A DNA stretch of 43,869 bases from Deltaproteobacteria bacterium. Lineage in GTDB: Bacteria; Myxococcota_A; Bradymonadia; REDH01. Of the stretch, positions 11,948 through 43,280 are shown one piece after another. Location of the stretch: NCBI GenBank assembly GCA_013205435.1, contig JABMMX010000165.1, positions 1-43,869 of the forward strand, written 5' to 3'. Below the pieces are notes generated by a model, which searched no databases, was not told the DNA's origin, and saw only the letters and a list, made by a program, of their open reading frames with translations. The position numbers and the translations under genes were made by a program. The first letter of the stretch is position 1. Each line of letters starts with the position of its first letter.

Positions 11948-12909
11948 GTTGCGGCTGCCTGCTTGGCGGCCTGGCCGCGCGCATAGTTGACCAGCATCAC
12001 GCCCAGCAGCGTGAGGCCGCCTCCCTTGATGGCCATCGCGCTGGGCGGCTCATCGAAGACGATCCAGCCGGAGGTGAAGGCCACCAGCGGCGCGAAGTAG
12101 AGCAGTGTGGCGCAGGTGGTGGGGCCCAGTTTGGAGATGGCGTAGCTCCAGAGCGCATAGCCAAGCGCGCCCGGCAGCGCGCCGAGGTAGATGAGGGCGC
12201 CCCAGTTCTCCCAGGAGGCCTGCTGGGCCTCTTCGAAGAGGCCGGGAGCGAAGGGGAGGAGGGCGACCGTGGCGGGGAGGAAGTTCCAGACGGTGAACTT
12301 CCAGCTGCCGTATTTTGCCACGAGCCGCTTCTGGAAGACGAAGTGGCAGGAGGTCGTGATGGCGCAGCCGACGATGTAGAGCGCCGAGAGTTGGAAGGAG
12401 AGGGTGCGACCCTGTCCGATGACGAGGAGGGCGGCGCCGGCGAAGGCAACCAGCATGCCGGCCCAGACCTGCCAGGTGATGCGCTCGAGGCCCAAGGCGC
12501 CGACGAGGATGGTGGTGAAGACGGGGGCGGTCTGCAGCAGCAGCGAGGTGGTTCCGGGCGGGACCTGCTGCTGCCCGAAGTTGAGGAGCAGGTGGTAGGC
12601 GGTGATGCCTACGAGGCCGAGCCCTGCGATGGGGAGGAGGTCTTCGCGGTCGGGGAGCGGGGTGATGCGGGCGGCAGGGTTGCCGGCGGCGACGCGGACG
12701 ACCGAGAGCAGGAGCAGGACGGCGGTGCCGATGGCGAAGCGGCCGAGCGCGAGCGGGCCGGGGCCGAAGCCCTCGAGGGCAATCTTCACGCCGGTGTAGG
12801 CGGTGCCCCAGAAGAGGATGACGAGCGAGGCGGCCATCCAGGCGAGCTGGCGCTCCCGCTCGGGGGTGCGGGTGGCGGGCGGCGAGGTCTGGGCGGCGGG
12901 GGCGGACAT
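11944..12909 (-). CDS. EamA/DMT-family transporter
   Basis: The protein is 321 aa with about 10 predicted hydrophobic helices in two EamA-like halves ('LFWGTAYTGVKIAL', 'YFAPLVAFTSGWIVFDE'). The start is ATG 12909, preceded by GAAGG. The stop overlaps the thiO start (ATGA). The upstream 266 aa of the track ORF is rejected as non-coding-like. Confidence 0.85.
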   Translation of the reverse strand: MSAPAAQTSPPATRTPERERQLAWMAASLVILFWGTAYTGVKIALEGFGPGPLALGRFAIGTAVLLLLSVVRVAAGNPAARITPLPDREDLLPIAGLGLVGITAYHLLLNFGQQQVPPGTTSLLLQTAPVFTTILVGALGLERITWQVWAGMLVAFAGAALLVIGQGRTLSFQLSALYIVGCAITTSCHFVFQKRLVAKYGSWKFTVWNFLPATVALLPFAPGLFEEAQQASWENWGALIYLGALPGALGYALWSYAISKLGPTTCATLLYFAPLVAFTSGWIVFDEPPSAMAIKGGGLTLLGVMLVNYARGQAAKQAAAT

Positions 12910-13044
12910 GGTGTTACCTTCGTTGCGCAGAGCGCTTATTGCGGCGGAGGGCGCGCGTCGAGATCCGCAGAGCGCGACCCTCGCCAACAGCGGGCGGTTG
13001 GGGTATGTCGCAGCCCTCTTGCGACCGCTCCGAAGGACCTCCAC

Positions 13045-18447: not shown

Positions 18448-19152
18448 GTGGTAGCTCTTCGCCTCGCCTTCACCGCTGACGGATGGCGCGACGCCCTCCG
18501 CTCCGCCGCCGAACATGGCGGCATCATGGGGCGTCTCGAGGGCGCGGAGCGACCCGCGCTCTATGCGCCCGTGTCCGTTACAATCATGGTGGATGGTACG
18601 GCCATCGGGACGGCAGAGGGGCAGGTGCTCACCGTCACGCCAACGGGCGACCTCGCGCTCGCCGTGGTGGCCGCGAAGCTGCCGGCGAACGAGCCGCCTG
18701 CGACCACCGGAGCAGCAGCCAGCGCGCCGCAGGGAGCCGGCGCCGACGCACCGCTCTTCAAGCAGTTTGAGAGCCTGTCGCGGCCCGAGAAGATGCACTG
18801 GGCCAAGTTCGGCTCCGAGTCGCAGCGGCGGCAGATCCTCCGCGACCGCGATGCCTCGCTCCATCCGCTCGTGCTCCAGAACGCACAGCTCGGCGGGCGG
18901 GAGCTGGCGCAGCTGCTCTCGTCCGGGAGCGTGAGCGGCCAGTTCGTGGTGGCGGTGGCAGAGCGCGACGCGCTGCACCGCGACCCGGCCGTGGTGCTGG
19001 CGCTGGTCCAGAACCCAGTGACGCCTGTTCATGTGGCGGAGCGGCTCGTCGCGCGGCTCCCGCTCGAGACGGCCAAGCGGCTCGCCAAGAGTGGCGCGCT
19101 GCGACTGCCCGTGCTTTCTGCGGCCAAGAAGCGGGCTGCCGAGCAGCGGTAA
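18448..19152 (+). CDS. Hypothetical protein: N-terminal beta-rich (possibly degenerate PilZ-like) domain plus C-terminal LRV/HEAT-like module
   Basis: The GTG start immediately follows the TAA stop of the GGDEF-EAL gene (0-nt gap). Third-position G+C is high from the first codon. The C-terminal region ('ILRDRDASLHPLVL', 'VVLALVQNPVTPVHV', 'LPLETAKRLAKSG') is homologous to the C-terminus of CDS 9396-10553. Confidence 0.6.
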   Translation: MVALRLAFTADGWRDALRSAAEHGGIMGRLEGAERPALYAPVSVTIMVDGTAIGTAEGQVLTVTPTGDLALAVVAAKLPANEPPATTGAAASAPQGAGADAPLFKQFESLSRPEKMHWAKFGSESQRRQILRDRDASLHPLVLQNAQLGGRELAQLLSSGSVSGQFVVAVAERDALHRDPAVVLALVQNPVTPVHVAERLVARLPLETAKRLAKSGALRLPVLSAAKKRAAEQR

Positions 19153-25905: not shown

Positions 25906-26114
25906 GGCATCTTCTCCTCTGCGTTCGGCCCGCATCGTGGTGACTTGCAGGCCGTCGTGCAACCTTCCTGCACCATAGGCAGCGCCTCGCCCGTTGACAC
26001 AGCAGCACCCTCCCCGCGAAGAGGCGAACGCCAACGCTGGAGCCCTGCCTGTTCCCCCACCTCCCAACCCTCCGCATCATCCTCCGCGCGCTCTTCTCGC
26101 GCCGCTGGTTTGGA

Positions 26115-27218
26115 GTGCGACGGCTCGCCGGCATCTCGCTGCTTGTGGCCTACTACCTCTTCGTCATCACGCAGAACTGGCTCTTCGACGCGCTCGACGC
26201 GCTCTTCTTTCCACGCGCCGCCAGCACGCCCACGCCGGCCCCCGTCATCGTGATTGCGGTGCCTCGCAGCGGCACCACCTTTCTCCATGGACTGATGGCG
26301 CAGGACCGCGCCCGCTTCCGCTTTCTAACCATGTTCGACAGCATGTTCCCCGCGGTCAGCAGCCGGAAGATCTACGACGCCTTTGCCGCGCTCGACCGTC
26401 TCATCGGCGCCCCCGTCGCACGCCTCGTCGGCGCCATCGAACGGGCCGCCTTCGCAGGCTGGGACGGCATCCACGCCACCGGCCTCATGCGCCCAGAAGA
26501 GGACGAGTGCCTCTGGTGCTTCCCCATGCTCACGCCTGCCATGTGGCTCGCCTTCCCCTTCACCGAAGAGCTCCGCCACCTCCGCTACATCGACCTCATG
26601 CCGGCCCCCGTCCGCGCCACGCTCACCGCCTTCCTCCGGCGCTACATGAGCAAGCAGGCCGCGCTCGACCCTGCACGCCGCACCCTGCTGCTCAAGAATG
26701 TGCTGCTCGCCGGCCGCATCGAGACCGTGGCGGCCGCCTTCCCCGACGCCCGCTTCATCTACCTCGTACGGAGCCCGCACGAGACCATCGCCTCGGGCGT
26801 CAGCATGTTCTCACGACCGTGGCGGCTCCACTCCCCCGACCTCGCCTACAACCCCGCTGCCACCCGCGCCTGGGCCGACCTGCTCATGGACTACAGCGAC
26901 AGCTACGACGCCTTCGTCGACGGGCTGCCAACAGAGCGACGCTTTGTGCTCGACTACCAGCGGCTCGTTGCAAAGCCGAGCGAGGCGGTGGCTGCCATCT
27001 ACAGCCACTTCGGCTGGGAGATCGAAGCAGACTTCCGCGAGGCCCTCACAGCATCCGACAGCCGGCAGGCACGCTTCGCCAGCAGCCACAGCTACAGCCT
27101 CGAGGCCTGCGGGCTCACCAACCAGGCAGTGGACCAACGCATGGCCCGCTTCATGACCCGCCACGGCTTTGCGCCCACTGCAAATCAGAGCGCGTCGGCC
27201 GAAGAGCGGATCGGCTAA
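26115..27218 (+). CDS. Sulfotransferase-family protein with N-terminal hydrophobic segment
   Basis: The PAPS 5'-phosphosulfate-binding loop 'VPRSGTTFLHGLM' and a 3'-phosphate motif region 'IYLVRSPHETIASGVS' are present. The N-terminal 'GISLLVAYYLFVITQNWLF' is hydrophobic. The start is GTG. Confidence 0.75.
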   Translation: MRRLAGISLLVAYYLFVITQNWLFDALDALFFPRAASTPTPAPVIVIAVPRSGTTFLHGLMAQDRARFRFLTMFDSMFPAVSSRKIYDAFAALDRLIGAPVARLVGAIERAAFAGWDGIHATGLMRPEEDECLWCFPMLTPAMWLAFPFTEELRHLRYIDLMPAPVRATLTAFLRRYMSKQAALDPARRTLLLKNVLLAGRIETVAAAFPDARFIYLVRSPHETIASGVSMFSRPWRLHSPDLAYNPAATRAWADLLMDYSDSYDAFVDGLPTERRFVLDYQRLVAKPSEAVAAIYSHFGWEIEADFREALTASDSRQARFASSHSYSLEACGLTNQAVDQRMARFMTRHGFAPTANQSASAEERIG

Positions 27219-27853
27219 CGGTCGCCGAAGTTCTGCGTCCAGTAGTGCGTATATTCGGAGCCCGGCACGCTCGCGTAGCCGATGCCGATGACGCCGAAGT
27301 CTGGGTCCATGATGTTGCGGCAGTGGCCGTCGCTCGCGAGCCAGCCCGCCACCACCTCTGCGCCCGTCGAGTAGCCCGCTGCGATGTTCTCGCCCATCGC
27401 GCCGCCGTTGTAGCCCGCCGCCTCCATGCGCTGGAAGGGGTCGAGCCCGTCGGGGTCGGTGTGGTCGAAGAAGTTCCGGTTGCCCATGTCCTTGCTCAGG
27501 GCCCGCGCTGTGCCAACGAGGATGGGGTTGAGACTGAGCGCCGGCGCTGGCCCGAAGACACCCTCTGAGTCACAATTCGCGCCTCGCGCACGCGCCGCAT
27601 TCACCCCGGCAAGGACGTCGGCCTCGAGCCGCGTCCAGGAGGCCGGCCAGCTGTCTGCTACACCCGTGTCGGCGCTGCCCGTGTCCGTGCTGCCCGTGTC
27701 CGTGCTGCCCGTGTCGCTACCGCCCGAGCTCGAACCGCCCGAAGAGCCGCCCGAAGACCGGCCCGTGTTCCGCTCCGGGATCTCGCTCCCGCAGCCCGTC
27801 AGACCCGTCACAAACAGCAGAGCCAGCACTCGATAGGAAATCGCTCGCATCAT
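27215..27853 (-). CDS. CAP/SCP/PR-1-like (YkwD-type) lipoprotein
   Basis: GAGGTGAG precedes the ATG ATG start. The lipobox is 'LTGC', followed by a Ser/Gly and 'DTGST' linker. The CAP domain shows 'LAGVNAARA', 'LSKDMGNRNFFDHTDPDG', 'GENIAAGYSTGAEVVAGWLASDGHCRNIM' and 'YWTQNFG'. Confidence 0.85.
   Translation of the reverse strand: MMRAISYRVLALLFVTGLTGCGSEIPERNTGRSSGGSSGGSSSGGSDTGSTDTGSTDTGSADTGVADSWPASWTRLEADVLAGVNAARARGANCDSEGVFGPAPALSLNPILVGTARALSKDMGNRNFFDHTDPDGLDPFQRMEAAGYNGGAMGENIAAGYSTGAEVVAGWLASDGHCRNIMDPDFGVIGIGYASVPGSEYTHYWTQNFGDR
27650..27718 (-). repeat. In-frame short tandem repeat (15-nt unit, about 3-4 copies) encoding (S/A)(T)DTG units in the CAP lipoprotein linker
   Basis: The plus strand reads gctgcccgtgtccgt / gctgcccgtgtccgt / gctgcccgtgtcgct consecutively (about 27674-27718), with a degenerate copy before. 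The protein reads 'GSDTGSTDTGSTDTGSADTGVADS'. Confidence 0.85.
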
Positions 27854-27985
27854 CTCACCTCGACGGAACCAACAGGTGCCTCCCAGTGTACCCTGTGTTA
27901 TAGAACCGCGCCGCCCGATTGGAAAGGTGCGCCGCGTCACAGCCGCTGCTAACGCCCGCACCACCACTGCAAGCGAGCCACCGCC

Positions 27986-28912
27986 ATGTCTTCTCCGTCG
28001 CTCTTCGACCGCGCCACCGACCACATGATCGCCCTGCAGGAGAGCATCCTCTCGTCGCTCGAGACCCTCGAAGGCGGGCCCGCCTTCCGGCACGACGACT
28101 GGCAGCGCGAAGAGCAGGAAGAGAGCGGAAACCCCGCCGCCCCCATCCTCCGCGGCTGGGGTCGCACCCGCGTCATCGAGAACGGCCGCTTCTTTGAGCG
28201 GGGCGGCGTCAACCTCTCGGTCGTCGAGGGCCGCTTCGGCAGCGTCGCACCAACCCATATGCCGGGCGACGGCCGCCACTTCCGAGCCGTCGGCGTCTCA
28301 CTCGTGCTCCACCCCCACAACCCCTTCGCCCCCACCGTCCACATGAACTACCGGCGCATGGAGCGGGGCAGCACGGGCTGGTTTGGCGGCGGCGCAGACC
28401 TCACCCCCAACTACCTCTTCGAAGAAGACGCCCGTCACTTCCACACCACCCTCAAGGCGGTCTGCGACGCCCACCCCGCGGTCGCCAACCACACCGCCAT
28501 GAAGGAGGAGTGCGACCGCTACTTCACCATCCCACACCGCGGCGAAATGCGCGGCGTGGGCGGCATCTTCTTCGACCACATGATGACCCAGCCCGAGGAG
28601 AGCTTCGCCTTCCTCCGCGACGCCAGCCAGGCCTTCATCCCCGCCTACCTCCCCCTCGCGGAGCGGCGCGGCGGCACCCCCTTCGAGCCCCACCACCGCC
28701 AGTGGCAGCTCCTCCGCCGCGGCCGCTACGTGGAGTTCAACCTCGTCAACGACCGCGGCACCCAGTTCGGCCTCCGCACCGGCGGCCGCATCGAGTCCAT
28801 CCTCATGTCGATGCCCGCCACCGCCTCCTGGGCCTATGACCACCACCCCGCACCGGGCTCCGACGAGGCCCGCATGGTGGCAGCCCTTCAGCCCCGCGAC
28901 TGGACGATCTGA
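27986..28912 (+). CDS. hemF: Oxygen-dependent coproporphyrinogen III oxidase
   Basis: HemF signatures are 'FERGGVNLSVV', 'GVSLVLHPHNPFAPTVHMNYR', 'WFGGGADLTPNY', 'GGIFFDH', 'YVEFNLVNDRGTQFGL' and 'IESILMSMP'. Confidence 0.92.
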   Translation: MSSPSLFDRATDHMIALQESILSSLETLEGGPAFRHDDWQREEQEESGNPAAPILRGWGRTRVIENGRFFERGGVNLSVVEGRFGSVAPTHMPGDGRHFRAVGVSLVLHPHNPFAPTVHMNYRRMERGSTGWFGGGADLTPNYLFEEDARHFHTTLKAVCDAHPAVANHTAMKEECDRYFTIPHRGEMRGVGGIFFDHMMTQPEESFAFLRDASQAFIPAYLPLAERRGGTPFEPHHRQWQLLRRGRYVEFNLVNDRGTQFGLRTGGRIESILMSMPATASWAYDHHPAPGSDEARMVAALQPRDWTI

Positions 28913-28988
28913 CCTGCGTTTCGCCTGAGCCAAAAACGGCGCGAGGGCCGGAAGCCCGACCCTCGCCTTCGCGCGCTTGCGAACCAGC

Positions 28989-31913
28989 CTAAGCCAGCTC
29001 GGCCTCGCCGTTCGTGATGACCTTCTCGCCACGCTGGTTCACCGACTCGATCTCGATGATGCGGCGACCGTTGGCCTCGCTCTTGAGCCAGCCACGGGTC
29101 GTGATCTCGTCGCCCGGAAGCACCGGCTTGGAGAAGCGCACCTTGAGCCGCTTGAGGTTGGCGGACTCGCCAGCAAGCAGGTTGTCGATGACGCCCCGCT
29201 GCACGAAGGCCATGGTCAGAAGGCCGTGGCCGATGACCGAGGGGAAGCCCACCGCCTTGGCGATGCTCTCGTCGGTGTGGATGGGGTTGTCGTCGCGCGA
29301 GGCGGCGGCGTAATCTACCGTCTGGCCGGGCTCGAGCGTGGCCGTCGCCGTGAAGAGCGGCGTGCCGCGCTCCGGCTCTGCCACCGGCTCGCTGCTGCCA
29401 CCCGACTTGTTGCCACGGATGAAGTAGCGGCTCACGATCTCCACGGCAGGAGCACCGTCGACGAAGATGGTCTGGCCAAGCTCGATGACCTTGCCCGAAG
29501 CCTTCTCCTCCACCTTCAGGAGCTTGCCGCGCGGGGTCATGAGATCCCACGGACGGAGCACCTGGTTGAAGGTCATCTCCTGCTCGCCATGCACGAGCCG
29601 GCCGAGGTCGAGGTCGAGGCTCCGATCCATGACCGCACCCTGCGCCATCTTGTGCACCGCGCGTACCGCAAATAGGGGCGGCGCAATCTGGTCGGCCCCT
29701 TCAGCATAGCGCGGGTTGCTGTCGCGCGTGGCCTTGGCATAGGCCTCGATGTCTGCGGCACGCGCAAACTCTGCGGGTTCGCGGTAGCGCAGGCCGACGG
29801 GCGAGCGGGGCGCAGCAGGTGCAGCAGCCGGAGCAGCAGCGGGCGCAGCAGCCGGAGCCGCGATGCGCGCCGCAATCTCCTTCGCCCCCTTCGTCATGTC
29901 GAACGAGGTCGCGTAGCGCATCAGGTCGCCCATGTTGGAGGCCTTGATCTTGCCAGCCATGAAGGCCTTCTCCGCCTTCTCCTTCCCCATCACGATGTCG
30001 ATGAAGGTGTCGCCCGTCGCGAAGTTGATGACACAGGTCGGCGTACCCACCTTGCCCTTCGACGACTTCACGGAGCCGCCCGCAATCTCCACCGAGTATT
30101 CGCCAATCCCCTTGATGTCGAAGAGCAGGTTGGCCGTCCAGCCAGCACCCTTCTCCGGCAAGAAGGCCTCCGCCATCCGCGAGAAGACCTCATCGGTCAC
30201 CGAACTCGCGCTCGGTGCCGCAGCGGCAGGCGCAGCGGCGGCCGGAGCCGCAGCGGGAGCCGCCGCAGCCGTCAGACGGCCCGCAATCTCCTTCGCCCCC
30301 TTCGTCATGTCGAACGAGGTCGCGTAGCGCATCAAGTCCGCCATGTTCGACGCCTTGATCTTGCCCGCCATGAAGGCCTTCTCCGCCTTCTCCTTGCCCA
30401 TCACGATGTCGATGAAGGTGTCGCCCGTTGCGAAGTTGATGACACAGGTCGGCTCGCCAACCTTGCCCTTCGCCGTCGTCACCGAGCCGCCCGAAATCGC
30501 CACCGAGTATTCGCCAATCCCCTTGATGTCGAAGAGCAGGTTGGCCGTCCAGCCAGCACCCTTCTCAGGCAAGAAGGCCTCCGCCATGCGCGAGAAGACC
30601 TCGTCCGTCACCGAACTCGCGCTCGGTGCCGCAGCGGCTGCAGCAACAGGCGCAGCGGCGGCCGGAGCCGCGGCAGCCGTCAGACGGCCCGCAATCTCCT
30701 TCGCCCCCTTCGTCATGTCGAACGAGGTGGCGTAGCGCATCAGGTCCGCCATGTTGGAGGCCTTGATCTTGCCCGCCATAAAGGCCTTCTCCGCCTTCTC
30801 CTTCCCCATCACGATGTCGATGAAGGTGTCGCCCGACGCGAAGTTGATCACGCAGGTCGGCTCGCCAACCTTGCCCTTCGCCGTCGTCACAGAGCCGCCC
30901 GAAATCGCGACCGAGTATTCGCCAATCCCCTTGATGTCGAAGAGCAGGTTGGCCGACCAGCCAGCACCCTTCTCCGGCAAGAAGGCCTCCGCCATGCGGG
31001 AGAAGACCTCGTCGGTCACCTGCTGCGGCGTCACCGGCGCAGCAGCCGCGGGAGCCGCAGCCGGCGCAGCAGCCGCACCCACCGAGAGCGCCTCAATCTC
31101 AGGCAGCCGGCGCGCAATCTCCTGCGCTGTCCAGTGGCCATCATCACGCTGCGCGCCGGGCGTCAGCAGCATCTTGTACTCGATGATCTCCGCGCCATGG
31201 CAGCCGAAGGTCCGGCCCGTCACCTCAGCAGCGAGGTCGCTCGCCAGGAAGACCACCATCGGCGAGACATACTCCGGCTTCTGGTCGTCGGCGACGATGT
31301 CGATGTCCTCGGTCATCCGCGTCTTGGCGATGGGCGCGATGCAGTTGGCGCGAACGCCCGACCGACCGATCTCCATGGCGAGCACGTTGGTGAACGACCA
31401 GATGCCCGCCTTCGCAGCCGCATAGTTCGACTGACCGTAGTTGCCCTTGAGGCCGGCAATCGAGGTCGTGTTGATGATGCTGCCGTTTCCGCTCTCCATG
31501 AGCGCAGGCAGGCAGGCGCGGGTCACCAGCATCGTGCCGGTGAGGTGCACCGCGATGACCGCGTCCCACTGCTCCTGCGTCATCTTCACAAAGGTCTTGT
31601 CGCGCAGGATGCCCGCGTTGTTGACCAGAATGTCGATGCGTCCGAAGGCATCGAGCGCGCTCTTGGCGATGCCCGCCGCGCCCTCTTGCATCGCCACATT
31701 GTTGAAGTCGGCCACGGCCTTGCCGCCCGCCGCACGGATCTCCTCCGCCACCATCTCAGCCGCAGCCGAGCTCGTGCCCACGCCATCACGCGTGCCGCCA
31801 AGGTCGTTGATGACCAGCAGGGCGCCTTCGCGCGCAAGCTGCAGCGCGTGGCTCCGACCGAGGCCGCCGCCGGCACCCGTTACGATCGCTACCTTTCCAT
31901 CCAGCAATCCCAT
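28989..31913 (-). CDS. Multifunctional enzyme type-2-like fusion: SDR (3R-hydroxyacyl-CoA dehydrogenase-like) + three SCP2 domains + double hot-dog hydratase-2 (MaoC)
   Basis: The start is ATG 31913 (GGAGAGAGAAC upstream); the track ORF's 82-aa N-terminal extension is rejected. The SDR part is colinear with the human HSD17B4 N-terminal domain ('VTGAGGGLGRSHAL', 'VINDLGG', 'ILVNNAGILRDKTF', 'YGQSNYAAAKAG', 'IAPIAKTRMT'). Three SCP2 units follow ('GWxANLLFDIKGIGEYSV..FMAGKIKASNM'). The hydratase part shows 'LVHGEQEMTF' and 'SRDDNPIHTDESIAKAVGFPSVIGHG'. Confidence 0.9.
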   Translation of the reverse strand: MGLLDGKVAIVTGAGGGLGRSHALQLAREGALLVINDLGGTRDGVGTSSAAAEMVAEEIRAAGGKAVADFNNVAMQEGAAGIAKSALDAFGRIDILVNNAGILRDKTFVKMTQEQWDAVIAVHLTGTMLVTRACLPALMESGNGSIINTTSIAGLKGNYGQSNYAAAKAGIWSFTNVLAMEIGRSGVRANCIAPIAKTRMTEDIDIVADDQKPEYVSPMVVFLASDLAAEVTGRTFGCHGAEIIEYKMLLTPGAQRDDGHWTAQEIARRLPEIEALSVGAAAAPAAAPAAAAPVTPQQVTDEVFSRMAEAFLPEKGAGWSANLLFDIKGIGEYSVAISGGSVTTAKGKVGEPTCVINFASGDTFIDIVMGKEKAEKAFMAGKIKASNMADLMRYATSFDMTKGAKEIAGRLTAAAAPAAAAPVAAAAAAPSASSVTDEVFSRMAEAFLPEKGAGWTANLLFDIKGIGEYSVAISGGSVTTAKGKVGEPTCVINFATGDTFIDIVMGKEKAEKAFMAGKIKASNMADLMRYATSFDMTKGAKEIAGRLTAAAAPAAAPAAAAPAAAAPSASSVTDEVFSRMAEAFLPEKGAGWTANLLFDIKGIGEYSVEIAGGSVKSSKGKVGTPTCVINFATGDTFIDIVMGKEKAEKAFMAGKIKASNMGDLMRYATSFDMTKGAKEIAARIAAPAAAPAAAPAAAPAAPRSPVGLRYREPAEFARAADIEAYAKATRDSNPRYAEGADQIAPPLFAVRAVHKMAQGAVMDRSLDLDLGRLVHGEQEMTFNQVLRPWDLMTPRGKLLKVEEKASGKVIELGQTIFVDGAPAVEIVSRYFIRGNKSGGSSEPVAEPERGTPLFTATATLEPGQTVDYAAASRDDNPIHTDESIAKAVGFPSVIGHGLLTMAFVQRGVIDNLLAGESANLKRLKVRFSKPVLPGDEITTRGWLKSEANGRRIIEIESVNQRGEKVITNGEAELA
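29862..31019 (-). repeat. Tandem triplication (periods 408 and 411 nt) encoding three near-identical SCP2 domains with Ala/Pro-rich linkers
   Basis: Plus-strand shadow ORFs beginning 'MLEALILPAMKAFSAF', 'MFDALILPAMKAFSAF' and 'MLEALILPAIKAFSAF' start at 29932, 30343 and 30751. On the coding strand, 'VTDEVFSRMAEAFLPEKGAGW' recurs at residues 299, 435 and 572. Units 1 and 2 differ at only 2 residues across the ~112-aa core (S/T at 'GWxANLL' and 'NFAxGD'). Confidence 0.95.
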
Positions 31914-31948
31914 GTTCTCTCTCCGAAGTTCTGTGTGTGTGTTGAAGG

Positions 31949-33097
31949 CTACTGAGGCTTGCGATCGATGATGGTCGCGACGCCCTGGCCGAAGCCGATG
32001 CAGAGCGTGGCGAGGCCATACCGGAGGTCGCGCTTCTCGAGCTCGTTGAGCAGCGTGCCGATGATGCGAACGCCCGAGCAACCCAGCGGGTGACCCAGGG
32101 CGATAGCGCCACCATTCACATTGGTCTTCGAGAGGTCTGCGCCCGTCTCCTTCGCCCATGCAAGCACCACCGAGGCAAAGGCCTCGTTGATCTCAAACAG
32201 GTCGATGTCGGCGATGGTCAGACCGGCCCGCTCGAGCACCTTCTTGGTCGCCGGAATGGGGCCCGTCAGCATGATGGTCGGATCCACGCCCGAGACCGCC
32301 GTCGCAACGATGCGGGCGCGGGGCTTGGCACCATGCTTAGCGGCGAACGAGGCCGACGAGAGCAGCGCTGCTGCAGCGCCGTCCGAGATCTGGCTCGACG
32401 AGGCCGCCGTGATCACGCCGCTCGTCTTGAAGGCCGGCTTGAGCTTGCTCAGCTTCTCGATCGTCGAACCCTCGCGGGGCCCCTCGTCACGGGTCACCAC
32501 AATCGGCGCACCGTCGGGAGTCACGGTGTGGACCGCGAAGATCTCGCTGTCGAATCGGCCGCTCGCCTGCGCAGCAAGCGCACGCTCGTGGCTCATCGAC
32601 GAGAAGGCATCGAGCTCCTCGCGCGAAAAGCCCCACTTCTCCGCGATCAGCTCCGCCGACAGCCCCTGCGGGATGATGTCGAAACGCTCCGTCAGCTTCT
32701 CCGAAATCTCGGCGGCGTCCGAGCCCATCGCGATGCGCGACATCGACTCCACACCCGCAGCGACCGCCACATCGGTCTGGCCGGCCATGATGCCGTGCGC
32801 GACGAAGTTGAGCGCCTGCAGGCTCGAGCCGCACTGACGGTTCACCGAGGTGCCCGCCACCGTCACAGGGTAGCCCGCCATCAGCGCCGCAACGCGGGCA
32901 ATGTTGAAGCCCTGCTCGCCCGTCTGCGTCACGCAACCCATCACCACATCTTCCAGCGTCTCCACGGGAAGCAGGCCGCGACGGGCAATCTCCGCCAGCG
33001 GCAGCGCCGCAAGCTCGTCGGCCCGCATCGTCGACAGGGCTCCACCGCGCTTGCCGATCGGCGTGCGCACCACATCCAAAATGACCGCATTCGACAT
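31949..33097 (-). CDS. Acetyl-CoA C-acyltransferase (thiolase)
   Basis: Thiolase motifs are 'VRTPIGKRGG', active-site 'VNRQCGSSLQA', 'NEAFASVVLAW' and 'NGGAIALGHPLGCSGVRI'. The gene ends 35 nt upstream of the MFE-2-like gene on the same strand. Confidence 0.9.
   Translation of the reverse strand: MSNAVILDVVRTPIGKRGGALSTMRADELAALPLAEIARRGLLPVETLEDVVMGCVTQTGEQGFNIARVAALMAGYPVTVAGTSVNRQCGSSLQALNFVAHGIMAGQTDVAVAAGVESMSRIAMGSDAAEISEKLTERFDIIPQGLSAELIAEKWGFSREELDAFSSMSHERALAAQASGRFDSEIFAVHTVTPDGAPIVVTRDEGPREGSTIEKLSKLKPAFKTSGVITAASSSQISDGAAAALLSSASFAAKHGAKPRARIVATAVSGVDPTIMLTGPIPATKKVLERAGLTIADIDLFEINEAFASVVLAWAKETGADLSKTNVNGGAIALGHPLGCSGVRIIGTLLNELEKRDLRYGLATLCIGFGQGVATIIDRKPQ

Positions 33098-36202: not shown

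Positions 36203-36206
<4 letters not shown>
35823..36206 (+). CDS. Hypothetical 127-aa helical protein, translationally coupled to the downstream kinase
   Basis: The composition is normal with high third-position G+C. The stop overlaps the kinase start (ATGA). No recognisable domain or clear ribosome-binding site was seen. Confidence 0.55.
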
Positions 36207-37594
<1,388 letters not shown>

Positions 37595-37602
37595 CCCAAG
37601 GC

Positions 37603-39576
37603 TTAGGCCCGGCGGCGACGCGCAAGGGCAAGCAGACCGAGCAGCGCAAGCCAACTCCACGAACCACCGCCCGCGGCAGAGCAGCCCTCGTCAGCCTTCG
37701 CCTTGGTCGAGGGCGGCGTAGCCGTTGTGTCTTCGCTGCCGCTGTCGCTCCCCGCATCTGCATCGCTCCCCGTATCGGCCTCGGACGCAACGCAGGCCGC
37801 CGTATCGAGCGTGCAGGCGGCCGTGCAGACCAGCGTGCCCGAAGCAAAGCCGAGCGCATCGCACGACAGACCCAGTAGGTCTGCGCCGTCGCAGGACTCG
37901 TCCGCCGTTGCCACGCCATCGCCGCATCGATCTACAGGTGCGACCGCGCAGGCCGTCGTGTCGATAACGCAGGTTGCCAGACAGGCCAGCGACCCCTCGC
38001 CAAGACCCAGGCTACCGCAGCTCGTCGTGCCAAAGTCGCTGCCGTCACACACCTCGCCCGTATCCATCTCGCCGTTGCCGCAGAGCGTGCAGGCGGCCAC
38101 ATCGAGCTCGCAGGTCGAAGTGCAGCCAAGCGTGCCGGCCGCAAACCCCTCGGTGGTGCAGGCGAGCTCCGCAGGAACCGTGCCGTCACAGCTCTCCTCC
38201 GCATCCAGCACACCATCGCCGCAACGCGAGCAGGAGGCAGTCTCGAAGGTGCAATCCGAACCGCACCCGAGCGTGCCGCTCTCAAAGCCCAGGCTACCGC
38301 AGGAGCCGCCGTTGAGGTCCGTGTTGTCACACACTTCGCTGCCCGTCGCAACGCCGTCGCCACAGACATCCACCACGGTGCCGACGCAGTCGCTCGTATC
38401 GAAAAGACAGCCCGAAACGCAGCCAAGCGTACCACCCGTAAAGCCGAGCATTTCGCAGGTCGTGCCTCCCAGATCGCTGCCGTCGCAGGTCTCCGAACCA
38501 TCACGCGTGTCGTTGCCGCAGAGTGTGCAGCCCGAGGTGTCGAGCCCGCAGCCGGCGCAGCCCATCGTGCCGCCCGCAAACCCCTGCGCCTCGCAGGTTG
38601 CGCCACCAAGATTGCTCCCGTCGCAGGTCTCGCTGCCGCTGATGGTGCCATCACCGCACTGGTTGCAGAAGACCTCGTCGAAGGTGCAGTCTCCGCCGCA
38701 CAGCAGCGTCCCCGCCGTGTAACCGCGGCTCACGCAGGTTGCTCCACCTAGGTCGCCCGCGTCACAATTCTCGGTACCCGTCCGGGCGCCATCGCCGCAA
38801 ACCTGCCCCGGGAGCGTCGTGCAGCCCGAGATGTCGACGTCCAGGCAGTCCGCAGCACAGGCCAGCGTGCCGCCCGCAAACCCAAAGGAAATGCAGGTCG
38901 TGCCGGAGGAGATTCCATCGCTGCCATCGCAGCCCTCGGTGCCCGTGCGCACGCCATCGCCGCAAACATCGGTCGGGAGCGTCGTGCAGCCCGACGTCAC
39001 CAGGCCGCTGCAGCTCGCGTTGCATGCCAAGGTTCCACCGTCGAAGGCCTCGGTCACGCAGGTTGCTCCGCCCAGGCTCGTGCCGTCGCAGGCCTCGCCC
39101 GCAGCCACATAGGTGGCGCTGTCACCGCACGGGTTGGGGCAGTTCTGGGTGCCACCGGCGCCACCGCCGCACCGCGCACAGTTGGCCCCCGTGCCGGAAG
39201 TCGAGGCGCAGCTCGCGTAGCCTGGCAACGTCGCGACCAGCAGCGTCGGGTTGGCGTTGCCGGGCCGCCAGGCGCCCGTCGGGTCGCCCAGCTCTTCGCC
39301 ATTGGTGTAGCCGTCGCCGTCTGCATCGAGCGCAGCGAGTGCAGGCCCCCAAACCACCGAACCAACAGCGCCAGAGACCGTCAGAAAGCTGAACTCAATC
39401 TGCGTTCCGAACGCGTTCCGCGCTCCACCGAAACCACTCGTGTGGCAGCTGAGGCAGTTGGCCTGCGAGCCGTTCGGAATCTGTCCCACCCGAAACGAGC
39501 GCGCCTCAGACGACGAGGCGCCAAGCACGAGACCACAGAGCACAACCAAGCAAGACAGCAGCGAAAGAGAGCGCAT
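37603..39576 (-). CDS. Secreted CXXCH / TSP3-like / 9x cysteine-rich-repeat protein with MYXO-CTERM-like anchor
   Basis: The start is ATG 39576, preceded by GAGGAGG. The signal peptide is 'MRSLSLLSCLVVLCGLVLGASSSEA'. Also present are 'CLSCH', 'DADGDGYTNGEELGDP', nine 'CGDGxxxGxExCDGxxLGGxxC..GxLxC..C' units, and the C-terminus 'GCSAAGGGSWSWLALLGLLALARRRR'. Confidence 0.8.
   Translation of the reverse strand: MRSLSLLSCLVVLCGLVLGASSSEARSFRVGQIPNGSQANCLSCHTSGFGGARNAFGTQIEFSFLTVSGAVGSVVWGPALAALDADGDGYTNGEELGDPTGAWRPGNANPTLLVATLPGYASCASTSGTGANCARCGGGAGGTQNCPNPCGDSATYVAAGEACDGTSLGGATCVTEAFDGGTLACNASCSGLVTSGCTTLPTDVCGDGVRTGTEGCDGSDGISSGTTCISFGFAGGTLACAADCLDVDISGCTTLPGQVCGDGARTGTENCDAGDLGGATCVSRGYTAGTLLCGGDCTFDEVFCNQCGDGTISGSETCDGSNLGGATCEAQGFAGGTMGCAGCGLDTSGCTLCGNDTRDGSETCDGSDLGGTTCEMLGFTGGTLGCVSGCLFDTSDCVGTVVDVCGDGVATGSEVCDNTDLNGGSCGSLGFESGTLGCGSDCTFETASCSRCGDGVLDAEESCDGTVPAELACTTEGFAAGTLGCTSTCELDVAACTLCGNGEMDTGEVCDGSDFGTTSCGSLGLGEGSLACLATCVIDTTACAVAPVDRCGDGVATADESCDGADLLGLSCDALGFASGTLVCTAACTLDTAACVASEADTGSDADAGSDSGSEDTTATPPSTKAKADEGCSAAGGGSWSWLALLGLLALARRRRA
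37792..39129 (-). repeat. Nine tandem ~46-55-aa cysteine-rich repeats (myxobacterial 'CGDG..E.CD.G' type) within CDS 37603-39576
   Basis: Repeat starts are at Cys150, 205, 260, 307, 353, 405, 452, 499 and 551 of the 657-aa protein. Each has 6 conserved Cys and the core 'CGDG/CGNx...E.CDG..LGG..C...G...G.L.C...C'. Confidence 0.9.
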
Positions 39577-39643
39577 CAAAACCTCCTCAAAGAGCGTTCT
39601 GGCACTCTGCCACCGCCGCCGCATTGCCGCAAACTTCACGCGA

Positions 39644-40426
39644 TCAGACCGCCCAGAACCTGCGACGGCTCACAAGCGCAGCCATCAGGAGCAGCCCAAG
39701 CCCGGCTGCACCGCCGCCACCTGCGGCGCAGCCGCCCGGCTGCGTCACGCTCGTCTCCACGGGCGAGCTGTCATCACTGCCCTCGCCCGCATCAGCCTCG
39801 CTCCCCGTGTCTACGGAGCCCGATGCATCGGCTCCCGGGTCGGCGCCTTCGCGCAAACAGGCCGACGCATCCACCGTGCAGATCGCTCGGCAGCTCACCT
39901 CGCCCGACAGATAGCCCAGCGAGACACAGCTGTTGCCGCCAAGGTTGGCACCATCGCAGTACTCGCCCGCTCCGTCGGCCAAGATGCCGTCGCCGCAGAC
40001 ACTCGGGCATCGCTGAACCCCCGTCGCCGTGCCACGGCACCGACCGCAGCTCCGCTCCGCCGTCGGAAGCTCGTCACAGGTCGCAAAACCCGGGAAGGAG
40101 AAGGTCGCAGGTGCCGGATCGCCGGGCAACCAGGTGCCCTCGGGGTCGCCGAGCTCCTGCCCGTTCGTCGCGCCGTCGCCGTCCGAGTCCAGGGCGGCGA
40201 AGGCAGGGCCCCAGAGGACATCGGCCGAGCCCACTGAGCCCGGCGCGAGGAAGCCTGCCTCCATCGCCTGGCCGAACGGATTGAGCTGGCTGCCGTTGTG
40301 GCATGCGTTGCAGCTGAGCGCGGCGCCAGCGGGCAGCTGCTGCTCACGGAAGGGGCGCGCCAAAGCGGGAGCGGCAGCAGCAAAGACCCCCGAAACCAGA
40401 GAGAGCGCAAAAATAAGGTGACGCAT
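39644..40426 (-). CDS. Secreted CXXCH / TSP3-like / 1x cysteine-rich-repeat protein with MYXO-CTERM-like anchor (short paralogue of 37603-39576)
   Basis: The start is ATG 40426 with signal peptide 'MRHLIFALSLVSGVFAAAAPALA'. Also present are 'CNACH', 'DSDGDGATNGQELGDP', one 'CGDGILADGAGEYCDGANLGGNSC' unit, and the C-terminus 'GGCAAGGGGAAGLGLLLMAALVSRRR'. Confidence 0.75.
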   Translation of the reverse strand: MRHLIFALSLVSGVFAAAAPALARPFREQQLPAGAALSCNACHNGSQLNPFGQAMEAGFLAPGSVGSADVLWGPAFAALDSDGDGATNGQELGDPEGTWLPGDPAPATFSFPGFATCDELPTAERSCGRCRGTATGVQRCPSVCGDGILADGAGEYCDGANLGGNSCVSLGYLSGEVSCRAICTVDASACLREGADPGADASGSVDTGSEADAGEGSDDSSPVETSVTQPGGCAAGGGGAAGLGLLLMAALVSRRRFWAV

Positions 40427-40562
40427 GGGAGCCCTAACCGTTGGTGCAAATGTTGCGCGGGCGAATCCGGTAAAGCACCCGCTACTCGCCCAGCGAACGA
40501 TAGAGATCGTCCTTGCCGATGGTATCGACATCTTCAAAAAATCCATCTCTTGGGACAGTGAA

Positions 40563-43280
40563 TCAGCGGGCGGGACGAACAGGCACCAGCGAGATGGTCG
40601 CCGCCTCGATCGGAGCCACCGACATGTTCAGGTCGCGGGGGGTGTTGCTCAGCCAGAGCGGCAGGTGGTCTTCGTAGTTCGGAGAGGTCCGGTGCTGGCT
40701 CTGCCCGCCGGGCAGCTGATACTGGCAGCTCACCGTGGACGAGACAGGGTCGGCCTCACACTGCATCCGCATCGAAGCGCCCGCCGTGTGCGAGTAGTCT
40801 CCGCCACGCGGCGACTCCGGGTTGGCCACATCCACCGTCGCAAAGCCTCCGTCGTTGGCATAGGGGCCGTTGTCATAGGTCGTGATGCCGAACGAGCTGA
40901 AGAGGTCCGCCGGGAGCTTCAGCACATGCTTGCGGCCCCAGAGCCAACTGTCGGCCTCTGCCGAATCAAAGGCCGCCGTCAGCTTGACCGACGCAGCCGT
41001 CAGCGCCCGGAGCAGCGTCTCGCCCTGCGTCTCCGTCACAGCTGACGTCGACACATCGTCCCAGTAGTTGTGCGCCGCATCGAAGGTGCCGGGCTGCGAC
41101 ACGAGCCGGAGGAGCGTCATGACCGGAGCCTTCACCGGCCAGGCCGTGCCCGTCCCCGCCGCATAGCTGTTGGCATTCGCCTCATCATCAAAGGTCAGCT
41201 CGGTCGCCGTCTGCAGGTACTGGTGGAAGATCATGCAGGCCACCGCCGCCTCGCGGGCCGCAGCATCGTCCGAGGCCGCACCGGCCGCGTCCGAGGTCGC
41301 AAGGCCGGTCGGGCAGGTGCGGTCCCAAGCTGTCAGACGCGCAACCAGTGCGGTCTGGTTCGCGTCGAGCGTCGCAGCAGCGGCCGCCTCAAAGAGCGAC
41401 GGCAACAGCATGTCGGCCGCCAGCAGGTAGGTGTCTGCGGCGATCGCATTCATCGTCGCCTTCGTGTGGGTGGCTCCACCGGCCTCCAACAGCGCCTTGA
41501 TGCGACTGGCGCGGAAGCCAAAATCGCTCGAGCTCTGCAGCGGCGAGTAGCCGTCGTTGGTCGCATCGCCGTCGGCCAGCGCGCCCGTCATGTCGTTGTT
41601 CGCCGTCACCACATAACCCGCGACCGGGTTGAGCGCCTGCGGAAGGTCGTCATAGGCATAGAACCCCTGCCACTCGGCCGAACCATCTCCGGGGAGCGCA
41701 GCCCACGGCGAGAGCGAACGGCTCGCCCACGGGCGCAGCGGAACCCGGCTCAGCGGGAACCAGCCAATGTTGTTCTCCGCATCGATGACCACCCAGTTCT
41801 GCCCCACGCTTGTCGCCTGCGAAATCGCCACCTTCGCCTCGGCGATGTTGTTCGAAAAGTTCAGGTCGGTGAGGAAGTTGATGTCGGTCGTCATGTCGTT
41901 GCCAGTCCAGCGCAGCGACACCGCCTTGCCGCTCGCCGCATCGAGCGACAACACAGGCCCGTGATGGGGCACTATCTTGAGAGGCACCACCTGCGGCTCC
42001 AGCACGCCCGTCGCCGAGTTGGCCACCTCGAACGTATGGTCCACCGTGATGAAGGGCACCGTCTCGCCGTTGAAGACAACGCCGTCGCCGTCGGCCGACA
42101 GCGTCTCGAGGTAGGCGTCAGCCATGTCGTAGTAGGTGGTCGTGGCGCCCCAGGCGACCCGCTCATTCTGTCCGATCAGGAAGAGCGGAAGGCCCGCAAA
42201 GCTCATGCCGCCCGCATGCCAGTTGCCCGTGCCGCGCGACTTCGAATCCACCGTCGCGATGTACCAGATTGCGGGATTCGACAGCGTCAGGTGGGGGTCG
42301 TTCGCCAGCAGCGCGTTGCCGCTCGCCGACCGGCTCCCCGCCACCACCCAGTTGTTCGAACCCTTGATGGAGTTCCGCAGCGTCGCAGGCACATAGTCGG
42401 CCTGGCCGAGCGCACTCGCCATCACACTCCGCCACGGTCCGTAGTCGGGTGCCTTGCCCGTGCGCGGGAGCACAAGCGAGCCGCGGCCCGCCGGCGCATA
42501 GTCTGGCGCGATGACGGTCGGATCGAGGCTCCACGGACCCACCAATTCGTAAGCCAAGTCTTCGCCAAAGCCGGCGATGTAGTCCGAGATCGCCAGGTCG
42601 TCTCGGCCCGAGTTCGTCAGGCTGTCTGCCAGCGCGATGACCGACGAGACCGTGTCCTTCGGCTCCCAGTCGGGGATGTTCTCCTCACGCACGAGCGCGA
42701 AGCTGTACTCCTCCGAGAGCACCGCCCCATTCCGCCCCGCACGCATGTCGGCCAGCCAGGCATTCACGCCCGTCGCATAGGCCTCCAAAATCGCCAGTGA
42801 CTTGGGCGACGCGTTCGCGAGGATTGCCTCCTCGAGGTAGCGACCGTCGCGGGTCATGAAGGTAACCCGGTTCCGCTTGTCGACCTCGATGGCCGCCGCG
42901 CCCACCAGCTGCGAAATCCGACCCGTCGTCGAACGACGCCGCAGATCCATCTGCTCAAAACGGTCGCGGGCATGGAAGTAGCCTAGGCCGGCCGCGCAGT
43001 CCTCGTCGGTCGCACAGAGCAGGTGCAACACGCCGAGCGCGTCGAAGCTGGCAGTGAGCTCGCCGGAGAGCCCCGGGATCGAGACGCCTTCGAGGGCGCC
43101 GCTGCCGTCGGTGTCGCCGCTGCCCGTGTCGCTACCGCCCGTATCTCCGCTCCCCGACCCGGCCGTGTCGCCGCTGCCGCCCGTGTCCTCGGTCGAGGTC
43201 GACTCCTTCTTGTCGTCCGAACAGGCCACCGCCAACAGCGCAAGCGCCGAAACCAGACTCCACTTCGTCATGCTCTTCAT
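40563..43280 (-). CDS. Penicillin-acylase-family (Ntn-hydrolase; penicillin/AHL acylase-like) lipoprotein
   Basis: The lipobox is 'LLAVAC', followed by an acidic 'GDTGGSDTGSGDTDG' linker. 'GYFHARDRFEQMD' matches the alpha-subunit pattern. 'GSNNWVVAGSRSASGNALLANDPHL' contains the family's beta-subunit N-terminal Ser nucleophile motif (SNxW). Confidence 0.88.
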   Translation of the reverse strand: MKSMTKWSLVSALALLAVACSDDKKESTSTEDTGGSGDTAGSGSGDTGGSDTGSGDTDGSGALEGVSIPGLSGELTASFDALGVLHLLCATDEDCAAGLGYFHARDRFEQMDLRRRSTTGRISQLVGAAAIEVDKRNRVTFMTRDGRYLEEAILANASPKSLAILEAYATGVNAWLADMRAGRNGAVLSEEYSFALVREENIPDWEPKDTVSSVIALADSLTNSGRDDLAISDYIAGFGEDLAYELVGPWSLDPTVIAPDYAPAGRGSLVLPRTGKAPDYGPWRSVMASALGQADYVPATLRNSIKGSNNWVVAGSRSASGNALLANDPHLTLSNPAIWYIATVDSKSRGTGNWHAGGMSFAGLPLFLIGQNERVAWGATTTYYDMADAYLETLSADGDGVVFNGETVPFITVDHTFEVANSATGVLEPQVVPLKIVPHHGPVLSLDAASGKAVSLRWTGNDMTTDINFLTDLNFSNNIAEAKVAISQATSVGQNWVVIDAENNIGWFPLSRVPLRPWASRSLSPWAALPGDGSAEWQGFYAYDDLPQALNPVAGYVVTANNDMTGALADGDATNDGYSPLQSSSDFGFRASRIKALLEAGGATHTKATMNAIAADTYLLAADMLLPSLFEAAAAATLDANQTALVARLTAWDRTCPTGLATSDAAGAASDDAAAREAAVACMIFHQYLQTATELTFDDEANANSYAAGTGTAWPVKAPVMTLLRLVSQPGTFDAAHNYWDDVSTSAVTETQGETLLRALTAASVKLTAAFDSAEADSWLWGRKHVLKLPADLFSSFGITTYDNGPYANDGGFATVDVANPESPRGGDYSHTAGASMRMQCEADPVSSTVSCQYQLPGGQSQHRTSPNYEDHLPLWLSNTPRDLNMSVAPIEAATISLVPVRPAR

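Follow-up and report, generated by a model that had tools for sequence, protein, structure and literature searches.

A thiolase gene and an MFE-2-like fusion gene with three tandem SCP2 units in a contig assigned to the Bradymonadia

Organization of the locus

The subject of this report is a pair of adjoining genes within a 43,869-nucleotide stretch of DNA (contig JABMMX010000165.1 of assembly GCA_013205435.1, deposited as Deltaproteobacteria bacterium and placed by GTDB in the Bradymonadia), the whole of which is hereafter called the window. Both coding sequences lie on the minus strand. The first, at 31949..33097, encodes a 3-ketoacyl-CoA thiolase of 382 amino acids, and the second, at 28989..31913 with the stop codon included, encodes a 974-residue multidomain protein in which a short-chain dehydrogenase/reductase (SDR), three SCP2 units and a hydratase-2 follow one another. 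Sequence comparisons place this layout among bacterial MFE-2-like fusions that carry a variable tandem SCP2 array and together make up a widespread family.

The stop codon of the thiolase gene ends at 31949, leaving a spacer of 35 nt (31914..31948, minus strand), in agreement with a first-pass annotation of this DNA that had placed the thiolase 35 nt upstream on the same strand without naming that strand. Within the spacer a GGAGAGAG ribosome-binding site precedes the ATG at 31913, and since no terminator was found within it, the two genes are read as an operon. Position 31913 is taken to be the correct start because of this ribosome-binding site, because the resulting N-terminus agrees with those of homologues, and because a longer open reading frame (ORF) reaching to 32159, which was considered and rejected, would overlap the thiolase gene. 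The operon probably ends at a terminator-like site (28931..28966, minus strand), which consists of a GC-rich hairpin of 11 bp and a T-run behind it and starts 23 nt past the stop codon of the fusion gene. A sigma-70 promoter scan of the locus returned zero matches, a result that is uninformative in the case of this organism. On its upstream side the operon is preceded, in the same orientation, by genes for EF-P, MsrA and an outer-membrane efflux protein, and a coproporphyrinogen oxidase gene converges on it from downstream; the locus thus has the look of an operon of two genes amid housekeeping genes. Near-identical genes occur in metagenome-assembled genomes (MAGs) from freshwater lakes labelled Bradymonadia or Myxococcales, and the host itself appears to be a freshwater Myxococcota organism.

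Domains and catalytic residues of the fusion protein

Pfam agrees with the order first read from the letters of the DNA, namely an SDR, three SCP2 units on Ala/Pro linkers and a double hot-dog hydratase-2, and every motif then quoted for the two proteins was found in their translations. The SDR (residues 1-276; 31086..31913, minus strand) is identified by sequence and structure matches as an MFE-2-type NAD-dependent (3R)-hydroxyacyl-CoA dehydrogenase. It contains an adh_short match at residues 7-203 (E 9e-45) and the motifs TGAGGGLG, VINDLGG with Asp37, and NNAG, together with the triad Ser151/Tyr164/Lys168; Asp37 in VNDLGG is the residue that selects NAD in MFE-2 dehydrogenases. At the opposite end of the protein, the hydratase part (residues 703-974; 28992..29807, minus strand) is assigned by Pfam and by structure matches to 2-enoyl-CoA hydratase 2 and forms a double hot dog. 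Its N-terminal hot dog (residues 718-834, matched by FAS1_DH_region / MFE-2_hydrat-2_N) carries VHGEQ, and its MaoC domain (residues 851-958, MaoC_dehydratas, E 2e-27) carries Asp874-x-Asn-Pro-Ile-His879 and Gly897.

The catalytic residues of both the SDR and the hydratase-2 are intact. When 25 three-unit members of the family are aligned, the SDR shows an invariant (25/25) Gly-rich loop, Asn36-Asp37, NNAG, Ser151, Tyr164 and Lys168, the hydratase residues His775, Asp874, Asn876, Pro877, Ile878, His879 and Gly897 are likewise invariant, and Gly776, Glu777 and Gln778 are kept in at least 90% of the aligned members. The Ser-Tyr-Lys triad and the hydratase Asp/His pair, whose loss would have spoken against the initial reading of the protein, are thus retained without variation. 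The hydratase motif reads SRDDNPIH, with Arg where Gly usually precedes Asp, at a position that is variable in the family.

Comparison with solved structures likewise bears out the view that both halves are of MFE-2 type, the best matches being MFE-2 or hydratase-2 enzymes. For the SDR these are the Candida tropicalis enzyme 2et6 (378 bits, with two SDR domains), human 1zbq (223 bits), rat 1gz6 (221 bits) and Drosophila 3oml (211 bits), with the Mycobacterium avium SDR 3qlj scoring about as high (213-215 bits), and the alignment to MFE-2 dehydrogenases extends through the MFE-2-specific C-terminal extension; the score to ChsB1/Hsd4A of cholesterol side-chain degradation (7lg9) is lower, at 158-162 bits. 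The C-terminal 270 residues match hydratase-2 of Phytophthora (3kh8), Drosophila MFE-2 and human 1s9c at 62-82 bits, with a template modelling score of about 0.8 to 3kh8 and 1s9c upon structure comparison. Fungal fatty-acid synthase (FAS) dehydratase domains are matched at 56-74 bits, and ChsH1/ChsH2 at an E value of only 1e-3. Given these relationships, the 974-residue protein is predicted to carry out (3R)-specific hydration and dehydrogenation of acyl-CoAs.

The top Foldseek match of the full-length AlphaFold model is full-length Drosophila MFE-2 (3oml, E 5e-34). Within the model the domains have confidence values (pLDDT) of 85-95, four linkers (residues 277-293, 414-428, 551-565 and 686-702) fall below 50, and the global score (pTM) is 0.38. 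The low linker confidence together with this pTM indicates a protein organized as beads on a string, without a fixed arrangement of its domains.

The SCP2 array and its history

Unit borders and unit counts were taken from a family hidden Markov model (HMM) built for this analysis. Unit 1 (residues 296-420; 30654..31028) and unit 2 (residues 432-556; 30246..30620) are of a type designated A, and unit 3 (residues 569-691; 29841..30209) is of type B, all on the minus strand. Pfam SCP2 matches three stretches with a total of 75 bits against a cut-off of 21.3 (total E 6e-21), and a profile of the units matches human SCP2 (E 1e-11) and the SCP2L domain of human MFE-2 (E 6e-10). The model of a single unit has a pLDDT of 89, and its significant Foldseek matches (E <= 1e-3) are exclusively SCP2 folds, among them UbiJ-SCP2 and the substrate-recruiting domains at the C-termini of two alkylsulfatases, SdsA1 and YjcS. 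The units are therefore true SCP2 folds and, by analogy with such proteins, are likely to bind lipids or acyl-CoAs.

At the DNA level the units and their Ala/Pro linkers are encoded by a tandem repeat (29811..31020) with a period of 408-411 bp, about 3 copies and 90-93% matches. All three units share 87-96% identity raw and 90-99% over HMM match columns: units 1 and 2 are 96% identical raw and 99% over match columns, and unit 3 is 87-91% identical to either of them raw and about 90% over match columns. Units 1 and 2 differ by 14 synonymous and 2 non-synonymous codon changes. Since the differences between units are mostly synonymous, the copies are under purifying selection and all are apparently maintained as functional. 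An assembly artefact is not the source of the triplication, because three units are likewise present in L001, a contig from an independent MAG that aligns collinearly with 14.7 kb of the window at 91.8% nucleotide identity.

Two lines of evidence bear on how the array arose. Firstly, the seven closest homologues as judged by the catalytic domains, leaving out relatives of 94-96% identity, are all single-unit proteins (54-57% identity), suggesting recent amplification of a sole unit in the lineage of the window; the triplication is thus probably a recent 408-411-bp tandem amplification of a single ancestral unit. Secondly, the order of unit types is A-A-B in the window and A-B-B in L001, which points to independent duplication or to gene conversion. 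In more distant syntenic sequences, one unit is present in L084 (about 87% nucleotide identity) and two in P0001, counts that may reflect collapse of the repeat in short-read assemblies; P0002/L084 holds a single unit as assembled. Three MAGs from lakes have the gene divided between a pair of contigs, with the break falling within the SCP2 repeats (L002/L005, L003/L007 and L004/L006). Short-read assembly probably breaks or collapses the repeat, and copy numbers in databases are therefore unreliable; by the same token the gene is often split or collapsed in MAGs and overlooked as a generic 'SDR family oxidoreductase'.

Across the family, a different pattern is observed. Among proteins with at least three units (n=36), the upstream units share 79% mutual identity on average as compared to 46% to the last unit, a split seen in 31 of the 36 (Wilcoxon p 2e-8), and the nearest foreign relative of a last unit is another last unit in 81 of 104 cases. 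It follows that amplification of upstream units, which are young duplicates, has taken place repeatedly across the family, and that the unit adjoining the hydratase is a distinct, older type that is conserved family-wide. These data suggest that multi-unit members hold two functionally different SCP2 classes, a differentiation that the window protein lacks, and that the number of units is evolutionarily labile.

A widespread family of bacterial fusions

A search was run against 5.8 billion clustered proteins, and the best 120 clusters were examined. SDR, SCP2 and MaoC domains are present in all of these best 120 matches, with one SCP2 unit in 17 proteins, two in 68, three in 27 (a count that takes in the window protein), four in 8 and five in 1; a genuine SDR-hydratase protein with zero SCP2 units (P0160) was also encountered. 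The at least 120 SDR-SCP2(1-5)-hydratase clusters all come from metagenomes or MAGs, the matches being labelled Myxococcota, Planctomycetota, Acidobacteriota, Nitrospinae, Schekmanbacteria and 'Deltaproteobacteria', and NCBI names the family proteins only 'SDR family NAD(P)-dependent oxidoreductase'. The rarity of the layout that the first-pass annotation implied is thus not borne out, for the layout is common in metagenomes with one to five units and occurs also with none. That annotation had held that its claim would fail were the layout both common and already characterised; the former is the case, and of the latter no sign was found, as a literature search returned no publication on a bacterial SDR-SCP2-MaoC enzyme and literature on sterol carrier proteins of bacteria that produce sterols yielded background only.

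A second search, with the hydratase domain against 1.84 billion representatives at 50% identity, yielded 167 proteins at E <= 1e-30. Among the best 150 of these 167, about 28 are proteins of at least 580 amino acids with a C-terminal match, and those checked are fusions of the SDR-SCP2-hydratase type; the best 150 also include stand-alone double hot dogs of about 280 amino acids, the bacterial relatives scoring 130-265 bits. Matches of 400-600 amino acids are mostly shortened copies of the SDR-SCP2-hydratase layout or SCP2+hydratase fragments, and it is among them that the SDR-hydratase protein P0160 was met. Two Streptomyces loci (L046 and L047), considered as full-length fusions, were rejected as separate adjoining SDR and MaoC genes.

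The same scores bear on the origin of the family. The hydratase reaches 60-82 bits to eukaryotic MFE-2 hydratases of the PDB as compared to 130-265 bits to its bacterial relatives, which disfavors recent transfer from eukaryotes or a specific sister relationship to eukaryotic MFE-2 and places the family within bacterial diversity. Origin by independent fusion is, on these comparisons, the likelier course.

The adjoining thiolase

The thiolase possesses all of the expected motifs, including the catalytic Cys in NRQCGSS, Asn in NEAF, His in GHPLG and Cys in CIGFGQG. It matches Thiolase_N (E 2e-63) and Thiolase_C (E 3e-50, 169 bits) in Pfam, and scores 444 bits on TIGR01930, a general acetyl-CoA C-acyltransferase model, against a cut-off of 240. 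It lies below every equivalog-level cut-off, with 396 bits against the 515 required by the steroid 3-ketoacyl-CoA thiolase model NF005889, and scores about equally on that model and on the FadA models. The best matches in the PDB are Thermus thermophilus 1ulq, Salmonella FadA 3goa, and M. tuberculosis FadA and FadA5, with biosynthetic thiolases among the matches as well. Judged from these profiles, the enzyme is a classical degradative thiolase I of the FadA/FadA5/ACAA1 type. Its initial description as part of an SCPx-like pair does not hold, since Pfam finds no SCP2 domain on it and the SCP2-thiolase-type model Thiolase_C_1 gives 19 bits, under its cut-off.

Proposed function and alternatives

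With moderate confidence, we propose that the two genes form an NAD-dependent β-oxidation module that carries out steps 2 to 4 via a (3R)-hydroxy intermediate. In this module the C-terminal double hot-dog hydratase-2 would convert 2-enoyl-CoA to (3R)-hydroxyacyl-CoA, the N-terminal MFE-2-type SDR would oxidize the latter to 3-ketoacyl-CoA with NAD, and the co-transcribed classical thiolase would cleave the product. The three SCP2 domains, which disordered Ala/Pro linkers suspend between the hydratase and the SDR, would act as non-covalent holders of the acyl tail, such that the array recruits and solubilizes long-chain acyl-CoAs and holds them near both active sites. A like role in the recruitment of hydrophobic substrates is ascribed to the appended SCP2 domains of alkylsulfatases and of UbiJ. 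The host would be a Bradymonadia-like predator that scavenges fatty acids, in which the (3R) intermediate might also be directed to the synthesis of polyhydroxyalkanoate (PHA). Cultured Bradymonabacteria lack FabB/F and FabI, possess many copies of fadL, and live as predators on prey lipids (PMC7460792). They also store PHA in predation, the predicted source of which is β-oxidation via an (R)-specific enoyl-CoA hydratase (PMC7460792). Such a lipid-scavenging lifestyle fits a reinforced enzyme for the handling of long-chain acyl-CoAs. The proposal builds on domain identities, catalytic residues, flexible linkers, a recent amplification under purifying selection and an operon structure that are established here, and from these predicts the stereochemistry, the direction of flux, the substrate chain length and the role of SCP2.

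Several observations weigh against a β-oxidation module composed of these two genes. No gene for an acyl-CoA dehydrogenase or oxidase, an acyl-CoA ligase or FadL is present in the 44-kb window, which leaves two genes as the basis for assigning the pathway. Each of the three reactions can proceed either way, and the sequence does not show in which direction they run; the hand-over by SCP2 of a tail-bound CoA ester from one site to the other is a supposition, as it is for eukaryotic MFE-2 too. Furthermore, the pairing with a thiolase that the first-pass annotation described is not conserved in the family and is confined to close relatives: by tblastn the thiolase adjoins the fusion gene only where protein identity exceeds 94% (L001/L002/L006/L007 and L084). 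The homologues of 44-52% identity that were examined are stand-alone genes with no thiolase found beside them, and when the flanking ORFs of 17 loci were compared with one another by BLAST, all against all, no shared neighbors emerged beyond the gene itself. The core role of the family therefore does not need this thiolase.

An alternative is that the module serves chiefly as a source of (R)-3-hydroxyacyl-CoA for a PHA synthase, with the hydratase-2 acting like PhaJ on enoyl-CoAs derived from prey. The R-specific route gives the exact substrate of PHA synthase, and the reactions of the thiolase and the SDR could additionally proceed in the sense of PhaA/PhaB. This alternative is compatible with the β-oxidation proposal. 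The hydratase domain is homologous to the PhaJ structures 1iq6 and 5cpg, though weakly so (31-37 bits as compared to 62-82 bits for hydratase-2), and has the form of a double hot dog in a window without phaC, unlike the PhaJ type, a single hot dog of about 135-160 amino acids linked to phaC. Genes for phasins and phaR were likewise not found in the window, the SDR is of NAD type with an invariant Asp37, unlike the NADPH-dependent PhaB, and a dehydrogenase on the same polypeptide would draw on the R-hydroxy intermediate in competition with the synthase instead of releasing it. The accumulation of PHA in predation described above is a property of cultured Bradymonabacteria, of which the window organism is a freshwater relative. 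Taken together, these points make supply of PHA synthesis as the main role unlikely.

Degradation of steroid side chains or of 2-methyl-branched acyl-CoAs, with the SCP2 units carrying sterol-like substrates, was the original suggestion; the module would then be an analogue of MFE-2/SCPx in bile-acid synthesis or of mycobacterial Hsd4A/Hsd4B. MFE-2-type enzymes do act on bile-acid intermediates and on 2-methyl-branched acyl-CoAs, and SCP2 folds can bind sterols; they also take fatty acyl-CoAs and many other lipids, and are not specific to sterols. Sterol synthesis occurs in some Myxococcota (PMC10202945, PMC12004948). In a 4-unit Myxococcota homologue (L081), TetR and P450 genes lie directly downstream (11529-13869), and a 3-unit homologue (L082) has a P450 gene about 7 kb away (17783-18892); P450 genes near two homologues are too little to build on, and no neighbor is conserved across the 17 loci of the family. 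Genes for a CAP-domain protein and a sulfotransferase, also syntenic in L084, stand 1-3 kb off the operon in the window. Against these points, the window contains no KstD/KshA, ChsE-type acyl-CoA dehydrogenase, Ltp2/DUF35 aldolase, Mce4 or sterol-synthesis genes, and all three enzymatic parts are poorly matched to steroid enzymes: the SDR scores lower to ChsB1/Hsd4A (158-162 bits) than to generic MFE-2 and the M. avium SDR (213-223 bits), the hydratase barely reaches ChsH1/ChsH2, and the thiolase falls short of NF005889 and does about as well on FadA models. With no steroid-catabolic genes in the window and weaker similarity to steroid enzymes, the suggestion loses its footing and is, in our estimate, improbable.

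Lastly, the module could run in reverse, as an acyl carrier protein (ACP)-independent, CoA-based system of fatty-acid elongation or synthesis in which the thiolase condenses, the SDR reduces, the hot dog dehydrates and the SCP2 array replaces the carrier. Tandem carriers on Ala/Pro linkers are typical of megasynthases such as the ACPs of polyunsaturated fatty acid (PUFA) synthases, and the hydratase matches both fungal FAS dehydratase domains and the Pfam model FAS1_DH_region. An archaeal FAS composed of a ketothiolase, an SDR ketoacyl-CoA reductase and a MaoC-type dehydratase has been reconstituted (bioRxiv 10.1101/2024.07.05.601840), and the losses of FabB/F and FabI in Bradymonabacteria (PMC7460792) are what such a system would compensate for. 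This direction is nonetheless very improbable, as neither an enoyl-CoA reductase nor a DUF35 scaffold was found among the scanned window ORFs, the NAD-type cofactor site speaks against biosynthesis, SCP2 binding is non-covalent and provides no thioester carrier, most family members have no adjoining thiolase, and the closest characterised relatives are all catabolic. Neither this reading nor the steroid/branched-chain one has positive support in the window. A further elaboration, in which the SCP2 array would be the non-covalent counterpart of the ACP or lipoyl 'swinging arm', with copy number tuning flux and the trio of enzymes serving CoA-based, ACP-independent elongation, has a very slim chance of being correct.

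Relation to known systems

Eukaryotic peroxisomal MFE-2 (HSD17B4; Drosophila CG3415, 3oml) shares with the window protein the same three domain families and the same catalytic residues, and is its best structural and sequence match among solved structures. As first noted, the domain order is not that of the eukaryotic enzyme, which is SDR-hydratase-SCP2 as opposed to SDR-SCP2x3-hydratase: the window protein has SCP2 in its interior, in three copies and with Ala/Pro linkers on either side. In addition, the window protein lacks a C-terminal type 1 peroxisomal targeting signal (PTS1), ending in ...AELA, and its hydratase is only about 25% identical to the eukaryotic one (60-82 bits).

The junction of SDR and SCP2 has a parallel in eukaryotic proteins, as Caenorhabditis elegans DHS-28 and human HSDL2 are each composed of SDR+SCP2 in the same order. 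The hydratase-2 of C. elegans is a separate protein, MAOC-1, whereas that of the window is fused. Together, DHS-28, MAOC-1 and DAF-22 perform the same chemistry as that proposed for the window module (PMC9352923, PMC9863881). The bacterial system differs from this split set in having a single polypeptide with several SCP2 units and a partner thiolase that is not of the SCPx/DAF-22 type. Among bacteria, the actinobacterial ChsB1/Hsd4A (7lg9/7lgb), Hsd4B, Rv0148/HtdY and 3qlj represent the same SDR subfamily and double hot-dog hydratases, the SDR score to M. avium 3qlj (213-215 bits) being on par with that to human MFE-2. Unlike the window protein, these are separate proteins without SCP2, and Hsd4A and Hsd4B belong to a cholesterol-catabolic regulon.

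For the SCP2 unit itself, the best fold matches are the alkylsulfatases SdsA1/Pisa1/YjcS and UbiJ-SCP2 (E 1e-7 to 6e-6), which also share the concept of an SCP2 domain bringing a greasy substrate to a soluble enzyme; they differ in their catalytic partners and in having a single C-terminal SCP2 in place of an internal tandem array. Lipoyl domains of the pyruvate dehydrogenase (PDH) E2 subunit and the ACPs of PUFA synthases are near-identical small domains that occur on Ala/Pro linkers in variable copy number. The SCP2 array may be likened to these in its tandem arrangement on such linkers, with the difference that lipoyl and phosphopantetheine groups hold their cargo covalently and SCP2 does not.

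If the proposed function is correct, bacteria have built an all-in-one counterpart of the peroxisomal D-bifunctional enzyme of their own, from the same domain families in another order, with a lipid-holding array of variable copy number (0-5) seated between the two active sites. The natural variants with 0, 1, 2, 3, 4 and 5 units would then constitute a natural experiment on the contribution of SCP2 to catalysis by MFE-2, the human enzyme included, and the system would bear on how lipid-scavenging predatory bacteria burn or store the fatty acids of their prey.

Other features of the window

The sulfotransferase mentioned above (Sulfotransfer_3/Sulfotransfer_1; 26115-27218, plus strand) and the CAP-domain (cysteine-rich secretory) protein (27215-28279, minus strand) are encoded back to back. 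In eukaryotes, sterols and lipids are acted upon by CAP proteins and by sulfotransferases of the cytosolic type, and the pair would provide a faint link to the idea of sterols. A 524-residue ORF at 25994-27568 (plus strand) has no Pfam match and was rejected, the true gene being the sulfotransferase in another frame.

Beyond the operon, a Ser/Thr protein kinase with an N-terminal cyclic-nucleotide-binding domain is encoded at 36203-37594 (plus strand) and is syntenic in L084. It is followed by an unusual trio of minus-strand genes (37603-39639, 39644-40546 and 40563-43280), kept at the edge of L084, in which two adjoining proteins with Temptin_C domains, named from a mollusc pheromone, stand beside a 905-residue protein of the penicillin-amidase family. 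At the other side of the window, a 1051-residue DEAD/Helicase_C protein (12343-15498, plus strand) with a winged helix of the HRQ1 type and the Zn-binding domain of MrfA (MZB) appears from its domains to be an MrfA/Hrq1-like repair helicase, and is followed by a PAS-GGDEF-EAL protein at 16351-18447. Finally, an ORF at 13-864 (plus strand) encodes eukaryote-like extracellular repeats of the teneurin-type EGF, DUF4215 and thrombospondin type 3 kinds.

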